Below are positions 1,498 to 49,741 of a stretch of DNA of 64,000 nucleotides, piece after piece. Each line of letters begins with the position of its first letter. The first letter of the stretch is position 1. Under the pieces are notes generated by a model, which saw only the letters and a list, made by a program, of their open reading frames with translations, made no database searches and was not told the origin of the DNA. The position numbers were made by a program, and so were the translations under genes. Origin of the DNA: an uncultured Chloroflexia bacterium (lineage in GTDB: Bacteria; Chloroflexota; Chloroflexia; Thermomicrobiales; UBA6265); assembly GCA_963741795.1 (NCBI GenBank), contig CAVUJM010000007.1, forward strand, positions 19,092 through 83,091. Direction: 5' to 3'.

Positions 1498-2607
1498 ATG
1501 CGCGTTGCTCTCGTTCACGATTACCTCACACAATATGGTGGCGCAGAGCGCGTGCTGGAAGTCCTTCACTCGATGTACCCGGAGGCCCCGGTCTACACCT
1601 CGTTGTTCGACCCCAGGGGCCTGCCACCCGGGTTCGACCGCTGGGAGATCCACACCAGCGCCCTCTCCCGCGTGCCCGGCGCCGTGCGCGACCATCGCCT
1701 CTGGACCCTGCTCTACCCGGGCATCTTCCGGCGCATCGGCAAGGACCTGGGCGGCACATTCGACGTCGTGATCGCCGACTCCAGCGCGTGGGCGCACCTG
1801 GCCCAGCCGGATGACGGTACGCCGATGATCTGCTACTGCCACTCGCCCGCGCGGTTCCTCTACAACGACGACGACTACCTCGCCGCCGTTCGATACCCGG
1901 CGCCAGTGAAGAAGGCGACGGACGCCGTGTTCCGCGCCTTGCGCGCCAACGACCAGCGCGCCGGTCGCAAGGTCACCCGCTTCGTCGCGAACTCCGAAGA
2001 AGTCCGACGCCGCATCCAACGCACGTGGGGGCAGGACGCCACGGTGATCCACCCGCCCGTCGATGTCGACCGGTTCCGCCCACAGGCGCCCGTCCCGGCG
2101 GAGGACTGGTACCTGGTGGTGTCACGCCTCGTGCCGCACAAGTGGATCGATCTGGCGGTGCGCGCCAGCACGGCGGCGAACGTGCCCCTGAAGGTCATCG
2201 GGGCCGGGCGCGCCGAGCATAGCCTGCGGGAGATGGCCGGCCCGACCGTCGAGTTCCTCGGGGAGCTGGACGACGACGCGGTGGTGTCGTACATGCAGCG
2301 CTGCAAGGCGCTCATCCTGCCCGGCGTCGAGGACTTCGGGATGACGGCCGTCGAGGCGCAGGCCGCGGGTCGTCCGGTGATCGCCGCCGGAGCCGGTGGC
2401 GCGCTGGAGACGGTGATCGACGGCGTCACCGGCCAACACTTCACACCGCACAGCGAGGCTGAGCTCGCCGAGATCCTGCGCGACGGGGACGGGCAGGCAT
2501 GGGATACGGCGGCGATCCAGGAGAACGCGGCACGCTTCCGCCGCGCCGTCTTCGAGGAGAAGATGGCCGCTCTGGTTGAAGAGATCGTCGCCAGCCGACC
2601 CTCGTAG
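1498..2607 (+). CDS. Glycosyltransferase family 4
   Basis: MRVALVHDYLTQYGGAERV N-terminus; EDFGMTAVEAQAAGRPVI GT-B motif. Confidence 0.93.
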   Translation: MRVALVHDYLTQYGGAERVLEVLHSMYPEAPVYTSLFDPRGLPPGFDRWEIHTSALSRVPGAVRDHRLWTLLYPGIFRRIGKDLGGTFDVVIADSSAWAHLAQPDDGTPMICYCHSPARFLYNDDDYLAAVRYPAPVKKATDAVFRALRANDQRAGRKVTRFVANSEEVRRRIQRTWGQDATVIHPPVDVDRFRPQAPVPAEDWYLVVSRLVPHKWIDLAVRASTAANVPLKVIGAGRAEHSLREMAGPTVEFLGELDDDAVVSYMQRCKALILPGVEDFGMTAVEAQAAGRPVIAAGAGGALETVIDGVTGQHFTPHSEAELAEILRDGDGQAWDTAAIQENAARFRRAVFEEKMAALVEEIVASRPS

Positions 2608-2700
2608 TCTCGCACCATATGTGCGAGACATCGGCCGCAGGCCGATACGGGCGCGATATGACCCTTCGGGTCATGTCCCGGACACATGGTCCGGGACTAC
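2604..2700. repeat. Four-hairpin REPIN-like element (GTAG...CTAC)
   Basis: GTAG-TCTCGCAC-catat-GTGCGAGA, ATCGGCC-gca-GGCCGAT, ATGACCC-ttc-GGGTCAT, GTCCCGGAC-acatg-GTCCGGGAC-TAC; same layout at 20493 and 49628. Confidence 0.85.
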
Positions 2701-3644: not shown

Positions 3645-5018
3645 GTGCACGCTGGCAAGATCACGATCGAGGAACTGACGTCGGCCATCCGCTCCGGGGA
3701 GATCGATACCGTCATCACCGCCGTCCCGGACATGCAGGGGCGGCTCGTCGGCAAGCGCGTGACGGGGACGCACTTCCTCGACCACTGCCTGGAGCACGGC
3801 ACCCATTTCTGCACCTACCTGCTCGCGACCGACATGGAGATGGAGACGCCGGACGGCTTCCCCGGCCATGACTGGACGACCGGCTACGGCGACTACCTCG
3901 CCAGGCCGGATTGGGGAACGCTGCGCGTCATCCCGTGGCTGGAGCGGACCGCGACTGGTGCTCTGCGATGCCGTCGAGCAGGAATCCGGGGAGACGGTCG
4001 ATGTCGCGCCACGCACGATCCTCCAGCGCCAGGTCGAGCGCGCGGAGGCGATGGGGTTCACCCCCAAGATGGCGACCGAGCTGGAGTTCTACCTGCTTCG
4101 GGAATCGTTCGAGGAGGCCCACGAGAAGGGGTACGCGAACCTGACGCCCTTCGGCTGGTACAACGAGGACTACCACCTCTTCCAGGCGACCAAGGCCGAG
4201 CCGATCTATCGACGTTTCCGCAACGAGATGACGGCGGCCGGCATCCCGGTCGAGTTCTCGAAGGGCGAAGCGGCGGCCGGGCAACATGAGGTGAACATCC
4301 ACTACGATACGGCGCTGGAGGCGGCCGACCGGGCAGTGCTGTTCAAGCACGGCGCGCGGGAGATCGCCTGGCAGGACGGACGCGCCCTGACCTTCATGTC
4401 GAAGCCGCACCAGACGTGGACGGGCTCCAGCGGGCATATCCACATCAGCTTGTGGGACGCTGAGGGCATAGGAGCGGTGTTCCCGCAGGACGAAACGGCC
4501 GGGAGATGAGCGACACGATGCGCTGGTTCCTCGGCGGGATGATCGCCGGCGCGCAGGAGCTTGCGCTGTTCATGGCGAGTACCGTCAACGCCTACAAGCG
4601 CTTCGCGGCGGCGTCGTGGGCGCCGACGAACATCGTCTGGGGACGCGATAACCGCACCTGCGGGTTCCGCGTGGTCGGCTCTGGCCCGGCGTTACGGATC
4701 GAGAACCGGCTCCCGGGCGCGGACAGCAACCCCTATCTCGCCTTCGCGGCTGTCCTCGCGGCCGGGCTGGCAGGCATCGAGCGGAAGATCGAGCCGCCGG
4801 AGGAGTTCCGCGGGAACGGGTACCTGGCGACTGATGCGCCGAAGATCCCGAGCGCGCTGTACAAGGCGATCGCGAACTGGGAGCGCAGCGAGCTGGCGCG
4901 GGAGGTCTTCGGCGAGCGGGTGCATGCGCATTACCTCAACCTCGCCCGCGTCGAGCAGGAGACGTACGACCGCGTGGTGACGGATTGGGAGCGCGTGCGG
5001 TACCTGGAACGAGGATAG
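3645..5018 (+). CDS. Glutamine synthetase family protein (GlnA4-like gamma-glutamyl-amine ligase); frameshifts near 3954 and 4503
   Basis: Three ORF pieces give PDMQGRLVGKR, ELEFYL, GQHEVN, TFMSKP, GSSGHIH, WGRDNRT, IENRLPGADSNPY; GTG 3645 after GAGGGGG. Confidence 0.85.
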
Positions 5019-5072: not shown

Positions 5073-5149
5073 GTAGAGCCGGCCCTCGCAGCTGCGGGCG
5101 GTGGCCGGCTTGAGGACAGACGTGAGCCGGCCACAAGGGCCGGCTGTAC
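5073..5149. repeat. REPIN-like element with a GTAG left arm and a GTAC right arm
   Basis: GTAG-AGCCGGCC-(inner hairpin)-gt-GGCCGGCT and AGCCGGCC-acaag-GGCCGGCT-GTAC. Confidence 0.75.
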
Positions 5150-6337: not shown

Positions 6338-6516
6338 GTGCTCTATCCCTCGTGACTCGCTGCACGGCGCCCGGCCGACGCCGGTTCTTCCCTTATCGTA
6401 CTGTACGAACGCGATCTTCGCGAGGAAGCCGGACGCTGCGGCCCATGAACGAGTGGACCTATGTCTCGCAGATATCGACCTTCGGCCGATGCATCGCACA
6501 TGCCAGTGCGACGCTA

Positions 6517-7851
6517 TTACGCCTTGCCGGTGTCTTCGAGATCGGCGCCGAGCTCCGTAAGCTTACGAACGAAGTCGGCGTAGCCGCGGTCGATGTGGAA
6601 GACGTCGGTGACCTCTGTCTCCCCCTCCGCGACGAGACCGGCGAGCACAACGCTGACGGCGGAACGAATATCGAGCGACTGGACGCGCGCGCCGTGAAGT
6701 TTCACGGGCCCGTGGACCTCGGCGGAGGTGGCGAGGAACTCGCCATTGTCGCCCCAGCGCTGGACGCGAATATCGGCGCCCATTTTGATCAGCTCGTCGG
6801 TATAGCGCAGGCGGTCCTCGTAGACGCGCTCGTGCACGTGCGCGATGCCCTCGGCCTGCGTCAGGAGCGGCATGAAGGTCGATTGGGAGTCGGTCGGGAA
6901 GCCGGGATACGGCAGCGTCTGGATATCGACGGCCTTCAGCGTCTTGCCGGGACGGACGAGCATCTCGCGGTCACGCATCCAGACGTCGGCGCCCGCCTCC
7001 TTCAGCTTCTCCGTGATCGGCACCATGTGATTCTCGATCACCTGGTCGATCGTCACCTCGCCGCCGGTGATGACGCCGGCGATCGCGTAGGTCGCGGCCT
7101 CCAGGCGATCCGGCAAGACGATCTCCGAGACGCCGGTCAGGCGCTCGACGCCGTGGACGGTGATGAACGGGGTACCGAGGCCGGAGATTCGCGCGCCCAT
7201 CCGGTTCAGCATCTCGCCGAGCCAGACGATCTCGGGCTCCGCGGAGGCGTTCATGATGACCGTCGTGCCGGCGGCCTTGGTGGCGGCCATCATCAGGGCC
7301 TCGGTACCGGTGTGGCTCGGATAGTCCATGTAGATGCGCGCGCCCTGCAGGGCACTGACGCGGGCGTGGATCATGTGCTCGTCGCGCTCGATCTCCGTGC
7401 CCATACGCTCGAAGCCGCGCAGGTGCATGTCGATCGGCCGCTTGCCGATCTGGTCGCCACCGGGGAGCGCGAACGAGATTTCGCCCATGCGCGCCAGCAT
7501 CGGACCCGTGACGACAACGGAAGCCCGCGTGGCGCGGAAGAGGCCATGGGGCGCATTCGTTCGGGTGATGTGCTCGGCGCGAATACGCACGCGCTCATGC
7601 TCGCGCTCGATCTCCACCTCGGCGCCAAAGGCCCGCAGCAACTCCGCCATGGAGAGGACGTCGTCGATCATCGGGACGTTGTTGAGGACAACTTCTTCCG
7701 GCGTCAGGAGCGACGCGGCCAGGGCCTTCAGGGCGGCATTCTTCGCGCCGCTAATGCGGACCCGGCCGCTCAGGGTATGGCCACCCCGAATCTTGAGCAG
7801 TCGCTCGGCGACAGGGGCCTGGGCGGTGGTGGAGTGCGCCGTTCCGGACAT
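6517..7851 (-). CDS. murA: UDP-N-acetylglucosamine 1-carboxyvinyltransferase
   Basis: SGAKNAAL, LPGGDQIGKRPIDMH, PDRLEA, PYPGFPTD, HIDRGY. Confidence 0.95.
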   Translation of the reverse strand: MSGTAHSTTAQAPVAERLLKIRGGHTLSGRVRISGAKNAALKALAASLLTPEEVVLNNVPMIDDVLSMAELLRAFGAEVEIEREHERVRIRAEHITRTNAPHGLFRATRASVVVTGPMLARMGEISFALPGGDQIGKRPIDMHLRGFERMGTEIERDEHMIHARVSALQGARIYMDYPSHTGTEALMMAATKAAGTTVIMNASAEPEIVWLGEMLNRMGARISGLGTPFITVHGVERLTGVSEIVLPDRLEAATYAIAGVITGGEVTIDQVIENHMVPITEKLKEAGADVWMRDREMLVRPGKTLKAVDIQTLPYPGFPTDSQSTFMPLLTQAEGIAHVHERVYEDRLRYTDELIKMGADIRVQRWGDNGEFLATSAEVHGPVKLHGARVQSLDIRSAVSVVLAGLVAEGETEVTDVFHIDRGYADFVRKLTELGADLEDTGKA

Positions 7852-20492: not shown

Positions 20493-20588
20493 GTAGTCCC
20501 GGGCCGTGCCCGGGACGGCACCGAAGGTGCCGCGTTGGCGCCCATATCGCCCTTCGGGCGATGTCTCGCCCACCGAGGGCGAGACGAC
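20493..20588. repeat. Four-hairpin REPIN-like element (GTAG...CGAC)
   Basis: GTAG-TCCCGGGC-cgt-GCCCGGGA, GGCACC-gaa-GGTGCC, ATCGCCC-ttc-GGGCGAT, GTCTCGCCC-accga-GGGCGAGAC. Confidence 0.8.
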
Positions 20589-20649: not shown

Positions 20650-20724
20650 GTAGACCCGAGCGACCTCGCTGTCCGGGTCTTGCGTTATGTCGCCGACCTC
20701 CGGGCTCGAGCGTCCAGGGTCTAC
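20650..20724. repeat. Second REPIN-like element (GTAGACCC...GGGTCTAC)
   Basis: Terminal inverted repeat GTAGACCC/GGGTCTAC; each half forms an imperfect hairpin. Confidence 0.6.
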
Positions 20725-34824: not shown

Positions 34825-36643
<1,819 letters not shown>

Positions 36644-37990: not shown

Positions 37991-38045
37991 GTACCGCCGC
38001 AGCTGGTCTGCGGCGATCAACGCCGGACACAAGGTCCGGCGGTAC
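37991..38045. repeat. GTAC-tagged REPIN-like element between mnmA and dnaA
   Basis: GTAC-CGCCGCAG-ctggt-CTGCGGCG-atcaa-CGCCGGAC-acaag-GTCCGGCG-GTAC. Confidence 0.85.
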
Positions 38046-38077: not shown

Positions 38078-38106
38078 TTGACATTCGCCGATAGTGTACG
38101 TACACT
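38078..38106 (+). promoter_or_regulatory. Sigma70-type dnaA promoter with a palindrome over the -10
   Basis: TTGACA-17 bp-TACACT; perfect 14-bp palindrome AGTGTACGTACACT at 38093-38106. Confidence 0.75.
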
Positions 38107-38144
38107 CTAATCTCTGCCGGATGAACGGCATGGGGGAGTGTGCG

Positions 38145-39666
38145 ATGTTGACAATGATGAGGACCAACGGCGTGTCTGGTGAGGGCGAGAACAACCCGGC
38201 TGTGGATGCCGGTACACCGGCGCCCAGCATCAATGTGAACCAACTCTGGCAAACCGTGCTCGGCGACCTCGAGACGCAGATTTCGCGCGGCCCGTTCGAC
38301 AACTGGTTCCGCCAGACCCGCCTCGCGTCGGTCGACGCCGAGACGGCGACCGTCTATGCCCCCAACGCCTTCAGCGCCTCGACCCTCCAGAGCCGCTATG
38401 CCACCCAGGTCGAGCGTGCCTTGCAGGGCGTGATCGGGCGTCGCCTCTCCGTGCGCTTCACCGTCGACTCACGCGCCACCGATCGCGAGCTTCCCGGCGC
38501 CGCAAGCCGCCAGGCAGCCGCCCGGAAGTCCGCCGCGCAATCAGAGCCGGCCTCTCCTGCCCCAACACCACGAAACCCACGCAAGCCGGCGTCAGAGACC
38601 GGTCTCAGCAACCGTCAGCTCGCGCTTGCAGCCATCGGCGCACGGGCTGGTTTCGCGCCTGACGTTCGACACCTATGTCGTCGGCAGCTCGAACCGCCTC
38701 GCCCACGCCGCCGCGCAGGCGATCGCCGAGGCCCCGGGTCGCCAGTACAACCCGTTCTTCGTGCATGGCGGCGTCGGGCTCGGCAAGACCCACCTTCTCC
38801 ATGCGATCGGCCACCGCGCGCTGGAGCTGAACCCGCAGCTGCAGGTGATGTACGTCACCTCCGAGACATTCACCAACGAGGTCATCAACGCGATCCGCAG
38901 CCAGCGCATGGACGAGTTCCGCGCCCGCTACCGCTCCATCGACATCCTGATGGTGGACGACGTCCAGTTCATCGCCGGCAAGGAGAGCACGCAGGAAGAG
39001 TTCTTCCACACCTTCAACTCGCTCTACCAGAACGGCAAGCAGGTCATCGTCAGCTCGGACAAGCCGCCGCGCGCGATCGAGCGGCTGGAGGAGCGCATGC
39101 GCTCCCGCTTCGCCGGCGGGCTGATCGCCGACGTCCAGATGCCGGACTTCGAGATGCGCACCGCGATCCTCCGCTCGAAAGCCGAGGAGCTGGGCGTGAA
39201 CCTGCCGCCGGACGTGATCGAGTACATCGCCCACCGCGACCAGACCAACATCCGCGAGCTCGAAGGCGCGCTGAACAAGATCCTGATGATGGCGCAGCTC
39301 TACAACCGCCGCCTGAACCTCGCTCTGGCGATGGAAGCCCTCACCGATGGCGTCGCCTCCCAGCGCCGGGCCGTGACGAGCGCCGCGGACGTCGTCGACG
39401 CCGTCTCCCGCCACTACGGCGTTGCCGAGAAGGATCTCAAGGGCCGCGCCCGGACGCGCAACATCGTTATGCCGCGCCAGGTCGCGATGTACCTGCTCCG
39501 TGAGGAAACCGACATCTCGCTGGAGGAGATCGGCCGCGCGATTGGCGGGCGGGATCACACCACGGTCATGCACGGCATCAAGAAGATCGAGGGCCAGATC
39601 GACACCGACAGCGAGCTCCGCGCCGCGATGATGGCGATCCGCGAGGACTTGCTGACGCCGAGATGA
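38145..39666 (+). CDS. dnaA: Chromosomal replication initiator DnaA; +1 frameshift near 38625
   Basis: Domain I LWQTVL...FDNWF; TFDTYVVGSSNRLA, GGVGLGKTHL, DDVQF, NIRELEG, GGRDHTTVMH. Confidence 0.95.
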
Positions 39667-40347: not shown

Positions 40348-40407
40348 GTACCGCCGCAGCTTGTCTGTGGCGTGGAAACAATCGCCGCAGACAAGCTGCG
40401 GCGGTAC
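40348..40407. repeat. GTAC-tagged REPIN-like element
   Basis: GTAC-CGCCGCAG-cttgt-CTGTGGCG-(10 nt)-CGCCGCAG-acaag-CTGCGGCG-GTAC. Confidence 0.85.
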
Positions 40408-43716: not shown

Positions 43717-43753
43717 CAGCGACGCCCCGACCATGATGGTCGGGGCGTCGCTG
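43717..43753 (+). terminator. Strong hairpin downstream of the DUF1684 gene
   Basis: Perfect 17-bp stem CAGCGACGCCCCGACCA/TGGTCGGGGCGTCGCTG. Confidence 0.65.
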
Positions 43754-49627: not shown

Positions 49628-49741
49628 GTAGTCTCGCCCCCTGTGGGCGAGACATCGGCCGCAGGCCGATAGACGCGCGGTAATTCCCGGCTGCACATCT
49701 GCCGCTTCGCGGCAGGTCTCGGGCACAGGGCCCGAGACTAC
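49628..49741. repeat. Four-hairpin REPIN-like element (GTAG...CTAC)
   Basis: GTAG-TCTCGCCC-cctgt-GGGCGAGA, ATCGGCC-gca-GGCCGAT, CTGCCGC-ttc-GCGGCAG, GTCTCGGGC-acagg-GCCCGAGAC-TAC. Confidence 0.85.

Follow-up and report, generated by a model that had tools for sequence, protein, structure and literature searches.

In E. coli, BIMEs combine alternating REP types with linker motifs. REPs that bear a GTAG tag have also been recorded in Chloroflexi, namely as family GTAG-23 of T. roseum, and in the same account published REP dimers carry their tags on the outside, are preferentially heterodimers and enclose spacers of 20–100 bp that may hold small stem-loops, while GTAG REPs prefer convergent or unidirectional gaps and can supply the TAG of their tag as a stop codon (Di Nocera, De Gregorio and Rocco 2013, PMC3733652). 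RAYTs (REP-associated tyrosine transposases), as characterized by Corneloup et al. (2021, PMC8266576), bind the folded single-stranded REP in a strand-specific manner, need GTAG for cleavage and contact bases of the loop. An old open question is whether REPs are kept as DNA, in the form of transposase substrates or replication-time structures, or as RNA, in the form of 3′-UTR stabilisers. Most REP hairpins fold equally well as DNA or RNA and on either strand, and a loop whose stability is confined to DNA and to one strand, tied to the strand that a RAYT reads, would give an experimental handle on whether selection acts on DNA or RNA.

The window, by which we mean the whole 64-kb stretch of DNA analysed here, contains three head-to-head dimers of GTAG-tagged REP hairpins, located by reading of the sequence at 2604–2700, 20493–20588 and 49628–49741. 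A strict REP-core search returned exactly these three loci in the 64 kb, with two inverted REP hairpins each and no others. The original prediction of four-hairpin composites was thus right as to both coordinates and layout; its count of three copies holds for the dimers, but a further, decayed single arm of the same family lies at 6474–6520 on the minus strand. Read on its own strand, each arm consists of a tetranucleotide tag, a 9-bp REP hairpin and then an abutting 7-bp hairpin with a 3-nt loop. The REP stems of all six window arms are perfect over 9 bp and GC-rich, with loops of 3–5 nt, and the last G of the tag is the first base of the stem; the tag is GTAG in five of these arms and GTCG in the sixth (element 2, right). 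On each arm's tag strand the inner triloop is either GCA (2/6) or GAA (4/6), closed by a C-G pair in every case (6/6), and the six predicted inner stems and loops (ATCGGCC-GCA twice, GGCACC-GAA, ATGACCC-GAA, ATCGCCC-GAA and CTGCCGC-GAA), all C-GNA-G on the tag strand, are correct without exception. The features are as follows.

2604..2629, + strand: element 1, left arm, GTAG and 9-bp REP hairpin of type A with a 5-nt loop
2630..2646, + strand: element 1, left inner 7-bp hairpin with C-GCA-G triloop
2647..2657: element 1, spacer of 11 nt, whose sequence as read from the A arm is conserved between copies
2658..2674, − strand: element 1, right inner 7-bp hairpin with C-GAA-G
2675..2700, − strand: element 1, right arm, GTAG and 9-bp REP hairpin of type B
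Neighbours of element 1: GT4 glycosyltransferase (+) and short-chain dehydrogenase (−)
6474–6520, − strand: decayed single arm of the C-GNA-G family between tandem (−) genes (covariance model, 27.7 bits, rough E 1.8e-5)
20493..20516, + strand: element 2, left arm, GTAG and B-like REP hairpin with a 3-nt loop
20516..20532, + strand: element 2, left inner hairpin with C-GAA-G, its first C in common with the REP stem
20546..20562, − strand: element 2, right inner hairpin with C-GAA-G
20563..20588, − strand: element 2, right arm, degenerate tag GTCG and REP hairpin of type A
Neighbours of element 2: UDP-glucose dehydrogenase (+) and UbiA prenyltransferase (−)
49628..49653, + strand: element 3, left arm, GTAG and REP hairpin of type A
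49654..49670, + strand: element 3, left inner hairpin with C-GCA-G
49671..49698: element 3, spacer of 28 nt, 17 nt longer than that of element 1
49699..49715, − strand: element 3, right inner hairpin with C-GAA-G
49716..49741, − strand: element 3, right arm, GTAG and REP hairpin with an A/B hybrid stem
Neighbours of element 3: NUDIX hydrolase (+) and Asp/Glu racemase (−)

Our single-stranded DNA folding calculations return the two-hairpin arm as both the minimum free energy and the centroid structure for all 12 arm strands, with z-scores of −5.1 to −7.2 and no fold as good in 200 shuffles. Folded as whole elements, all six strands form four local hairpins and never one long one, since the two arms carry different stem types and do not make up one long palindrome. 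In the same gap as element 2, 60 nt to its right, a GTAG-tagged bulged hairpin at 20650–20679 may be a decayed REP of another type.

The family is common to the window and to MAGs of Chloroflexota (Chloroflexia/Thermomicrobiales). Among at least 114 genome-contig loci, the true relatives are four dimers, L038, L040 and L105 in one uncultured Chloroflexia MAG and L114 in a Thermomicrobiales MAG, and about 107 loci are chance matches in unrelated high-GC genomes. The covariance model that found the decayed window arm was built from the 14 arms of these seven dimers (three from the window, four from MAGs), of which 12 have the tag GTAG. In the decayed arm the tag region provides the TAA (followed by TAG) stop of an EPSP-synthase gene, the REP stem is preserved through compensatory changes plus one G.T pair, and the inner hairpin is C-GAA-G with one G.T on the tag strand. 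Together with this arm the set comprises 15 arms from three or four genomes, and the abutting inner hairpin is found in 14 of them: 11 perfect, one with a G.T pair and two with a mismatch. The 14 inner loops are GAA (nine), GCA (four) and GAG (one, the left arm of L114), and hence GNA on the tag strand in 13 of 14; the first loop position is G and the closing pair C-G in all 14, and the third loop position is A in 13. The right inner hairpin of L038 has kept a G.T on the non-tag strand and an A.C on the tag strand. Searches beyond these genomes gave no blastn relative of any of the three elements among PLSDB plasmids, nor any Thermomicrobium match there, no family copy in the first 50 kb of the T. 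roseum megaplasmid (L115), which has only two weak GTAG hairpins, and no Rfam match for the elements. A similar two-hairpin layout, which in this other phylum may be coincidence, is seen in an Actinomycetota MAG, where a REP-like GTAG hairpin at L083:294–326 (minus strand) has directly after it a second, perfect hairpin of 10 bp with 4 nt in the loop.

Importantly, the repeated unit is the whole head-to-head heterodimer of about 97 bp and not the arm. When oriented by arm type, the seven dimers align from tag to tag through the spacer, homology stops at GTAG and CTAC, and the ten bases beyond each tag are unrelated among the seven. Likewise, blastn of the loci against the window finds similarity confined to the element, at 72–93% identity. 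In addition, the two arms are of different stem types (A and B) in all seven dimers, and the spacer motif has a fixed polarity relative to the A arm. The two-hairpin module that had been proposed as the recognised unit therefore does not stand as the unit of repetition. The same type of REP also occurs without an inner hairpin, both in the right arm of L114 and in another Chloroflexia MAG (L004 and L070), and two other REP families in the window likewise lack one. The 72–93% likeness among copies gives no sign of recent amplification, as judged from the 64-kb sample.

The stems vary between copies in a manner that keeps them paired. Over the 14 aligned arms, the 16 proposed pairs are paired in 94.6% of cells as opposed to 76.8% in shuffles, and nine of the 16, including six of the seven inner-helix pairs, show changes on both sides. 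None of 500 shuffles matched the observed covariation score and no slid register came near it; one row of the alignment (W2L) has its inner helix off by one column, which lowers the score rather than raising it. The inner stems, which the original prediction had described as mostly unrelated, are thus homologous positions that covary. The unpaired tag, the loop G1 and A3 and the closing C-G pair stay nearly invariant while the stems covary, and the middle loop base switches between A and C, with GAA and GCA both seen in both arm types. Because the stems covary while the unpaired bases remain fixed, the alignment supports a folded single strand, putatively read at its unpaired bases, as the conserved feature, and not a duplex site. 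The proposed selection on a folded single strand is upheld to this extent; that this strand is DNA and not the transcript is a plausible reading, the tag strand being mostly also the sense strand.

The inner hairpins stand out from the background of the window. Of its 34 perfect triloop hairpins with a stem of 6 bp or longer, seven fall within the three elements; among the other 27, two of which are intergenic, none is C-GNA-G or C-TNC-G in the list as read by eye. Similarly, among the 114 REP-core pattern matches listed from unrelated genomes, a triloop hairpin abuts one, and C-GNA-G is found beside none. The elements are also placed in a particular way with respect to genes. On our GC3-based gene map with Pfam domains (61 predicted genes), all three dimers lie in convergent gaps, as had been claimed, with P of about 0.0016 given eight convergent junctions among 60, and all seven window arms of the family are extragenic in the 64-kb sample. 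For the three window dimers and for L038, the flanking stop codons are convergent and the dimer starts 0–25 nt past the nearer one. Five arms supply the stop codon of the gene next to them, four through the TAG of their tag (the right ends of L040, L105 and L114, and 2605–2607 in the left tag of element 1, which ends the glycosyltransferase gene 1498–2607) and the decayed arm through TAA then TAG (6514–6519).

From the observed anatomy, boundaries, covariation, location bias and relatives we infer that these elements are REPIN/BIME-like, non-autonomous heterodimers of about 97 bp that are handled by a RAYT as folded single-stranded DNA and carry mini-hairpins acting as a clamp, a reading to which we assign a probability of roughly 0.6. 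A RAYT would most likely make and move the element on folded single-stranded DNA, acting on the strand that has GTAG 5′ of the hairpin, and the element would persist chiefly where convergent genes end, in gaps free of promoters. The C-GNA-G hairpin beside the RAYT-readable REP is probably a fast-folding and very stable clamp, which would keep the GC-rich arm in its hairpin register on the GTAG strand. Such a clamp would have a job to do, as GC-rich REP oligonucleotides are described as conformationally heterogeneous in vitro (PMC4690160). We put forward only tentatively, as a possibility, the stronger claim that the C-GNA-G mini-hairpin is a required and DNA-specific part of the RAYT substrate, a strand-marking clamp that outdoes its RNA and its complement in both folding speed and stability. 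If this were true, the family would be a natural case of DNA mini-hairpin thermodynamics under selection in a chromosomal repeat, and its built-in asymmetry between DNA and RNA would permit a direct test of the level at which REPs are selected.

That selection acts on DNA rather than RNA is plausible. The alternative at the RNA level, which we regard as rather unlikely, is that the dimer is a shared 3′-UTR structure of two convergent mRNAs whose stacked hairpins block 3′ exonucleases or aid termination, with the conserved loop bases serving as contacts for an RNA-binding protein or RNase. The position of the three window dimers and L038 directly after convergent stops would suit this role, and REPs are known 3′-UTR regulators in E. 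coli according to one report (10.64898/2026.03.23.713779). Among the 13 arms (of 15 in all) whose neighbouring gene can be oriented, moreover, 12 have a tag strand that is also the sense strand of that gene. In a head-to-head dimer between convergent genes, each transcript meets its tag-sense arm first. The original prediction had hoped to separate the two levels by asking whether loop orientation follows the tag or transcription; it does follow the tag, but in 12 of 13 arms it follows transcription as well and so does not discriminate, and descent alone would give the same outcome, since every copying event carries tag, REP and inner hairpin along together. The sole arm read antisense, which is the left one of L105 and lies in a tandem context, is perfect although crossed only by antisense transcription, and it is the sense-read right arm of the same dimer that has decayed; as a single case, this contrast is suggestive of DNA over RNA. 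G-T pairing in REP stems has been taken as a sign of RNA function (as presented in PMC3733652), and the single arm at 6474–6520 does have its G.T pairs on the sense strand; counted over the family, three G.T pairs fall on the tag strand and one on the other, too few to use. An RNA role in termination finds no echo in our scan for U-tract or T-run terminators around the three elements, which found none, and an RNA role finds none in Rfam. We rejected an intrinsic terminator as the identity of the elements, their GC-rich hairpins having no following T-run at any of the three. The loop chemistry also speaks for DNA. The original prediction had invoked very stable C-GNA-G triloops with a sheared G.A pair, and the chemistry holds: d(GCGAAGC) is listed with a sheared G-A pair and a Tm of 76.5 °C, the RNA counterpart of the tetraloop form with 39 °C (PMC13037366), and the stability of d(C-GNA-G) is described as DNA-specific (PMC13037366; PMC3201870). 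With the RNA form of the GNA-type mini-hairpin so much weaker in these data, the RNA level offers no obvious reason for the C-GNA-G constraint. In a nearest-neighbour DNA model, which is blind to the GNA bonus, the two strands differ by at most 0.6 kcal/mol, so the DNA argument draws on the published melting data only.

Two further explanations would do without selection on a folded DNA strand. The loops could simply have been inherited from one founder dimer, with the apparent covariation of the stems produced by hairpin-templated correction of quasi-palindromes and no selection on the loop. All arms are indeed homologous, the sample, at 15 arms drawn from three or four genomes, is small, and the arms of each dimer are inverted copies, so that the six of six window loops are not six independent events. 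We nevertheless consider descent alone improbable, because six of the seven inner pairs have diverged while G1 and the closing pair are unchanged in 14 of 14 arms and A3 in 13, because the A/C switch of the middle base in both arm types is the pattern of a GNA constraint and not of neutrality, and because the spacer and the REP loops vary more than the inner loop. The elements could alternatively be binding sites read as duplex DNA, for instance by gyrase or a nucleoid protein, proteins of the kind that E. coli BIMEs are described as binding (PMC2817692), and the conserved motif in the spacer would fit such a site. A reader of duplex would, however, preserve the sequence of the stems, whereas in these elements fixed bases are confined to unpaired positions and the stems covary, which makes this explanation very improbable indeed.

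Other repeats in the window form families of their own. A second REP family is represented at 5073–5149 by a head-to-head dimer whose tags are GTAG and GTAC and whose 8-bp stems read AGCCGGCC; it has no inner mini-hairpins, sits in another convergent gap (4506+/5195−), and its left unit has an 18-nt loop that contains a nested palindrome. In a third family, again lacking an inner hairpin, the tag is GTAC and the 8-bp stems read CGCCGSAS; it occurs as a tight head-to-head dimer immediately upstream of dnaA (37991–38045) and as a single unit (40383–40407). Its REP loops, CTGGT and CTTGT, are similar to those of the other two families, which read CNTGT. Unrelated to any REP family, a perfect 17-bp hairpin with a 3-nt loop lies at 43717–43753, where the convergent genes 43115+ and 44181− are 520 nt apart. 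The dnaA gene itself (38082–39663) sits at a switch in gene orientation, with genes mostly (−) to its left and mostly (+) to its right, which suggests a replication origin near 38 kb; the GC-skew profile of the window has no clear turn near dnaA and leaves this origin unconfirmed by skew. Four genes, dnaA among them, have Pfam domains split over two frames: an AlkZ-like glycosylase (130–1525), a glutamine synthetase (3868–5018), an alpha-amylase (34825–36568) and dnaA (38082–39663). They are either pseudogenes or the result of indel errors in assembly; in the latter case minor irregularities, for example the 3-nt loop in the REP hairpin of element 2, may likewise be artefacts.

Compared with described systems, the elements agree in several features with the published GTAG REP families (PMC3733652). 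Each arm has a short palindromic stem-loop, within the stem range of 6–13 bp that defines these families, and a GTAG or degenerate tag at one end, and the tags on the outside, the unlike arms, the use of the tag as stop codon and the type of gap all correspond to the published description; the window arms differ from it in that a mini-hairpin with a fixed C-GNA-G loop abuts the REP hairpin in each of them. The REPINs of Bertels and Rainey (2011; PMC3116915, PMC3337134) are likewise inverted REPs that are repeated together with their spacer as one unit and presumed to be mobilised by a RAYT, and this one-unit organisation is found in seven of our seven dimers. Contrasting with the elements described here, REPINs are portrayed in those papers as forming one long hairpin and near-identical populations, whereas we see four local hairpins and, in the 64-kb sample, copies of only 72–93% identity. 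A cognate RAYT gene, present in single copy and usually flanked by REPs or REPINs, also belongs to the REPIN picture, but is not seen in the window, where no Y1/RAYT domain occurs among 139 translations (61 predicted genes plus 78 leftover frames).

E. coli BIMEs resemble the elements in having two inverted REP types, a conserved linker and a defined polarity, but their linker is a protein-binding motif where ours contains two mini-hairpins, and both the phylum and the sequence are different. The same four-hairpin architecture can be recognised in the published accounts of the A. tumefaciens CGTC-3 dimers, with two stem-loops in the spacer, and of the Pseudomonas inverted repeats that flank RAYT genes and combine a degenerated GTAG-1 with an unrelated SLS (PMC3733652); these have another family and tag, and the likeness is one of architecture by description only. 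GTAG-23 of T. roseum is also a Thermomicrobiales GTAG REP, associated with small GC-rich palindromes with loops of 3–4 nt, but described as large blocks at few loci inside CCGSSCC(n3,4)GGSSCGG palindromes (PMC3733652), in contrast to dispersed elements whose palindromes lie within the dimer. This palindrome has no match in the window and none in the 50 kb of the T. roseum megaplasmid covered here, and judged by the published description of GTAG-23 the elements do not correspond to it (PMC3733652).

A parallel for the inner hairpins comes from outside the REP literature. The d(GCGNAGC) mini-hairpins at the phage G4 origin, at ssiA and at the N4 virion-RNAP promoters, as summarised in PMC13037366, have the same triloop on a short GC stem and are read by proteins in single-stranded DNA; they are single phage or plasmid sites, whereas the hairpins described here lie within a dispersed chromosomal repeat. 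No paper in the library searched brings repetitive extragenic elements together with triloops, and among the matches listed in a broader literature search none connects REPs or RAYTs to GNA triloops or to mini-hairpins. GTAG REPs of Chloroflexi, head-to-head dimers, structured spacers and tags that serve as stop codons are all already published, and in these respects the elements are ordinary REP dimers; the new detail that sets them apart from the known systems is the C-GNA-G inner hairpin on the REP arms.
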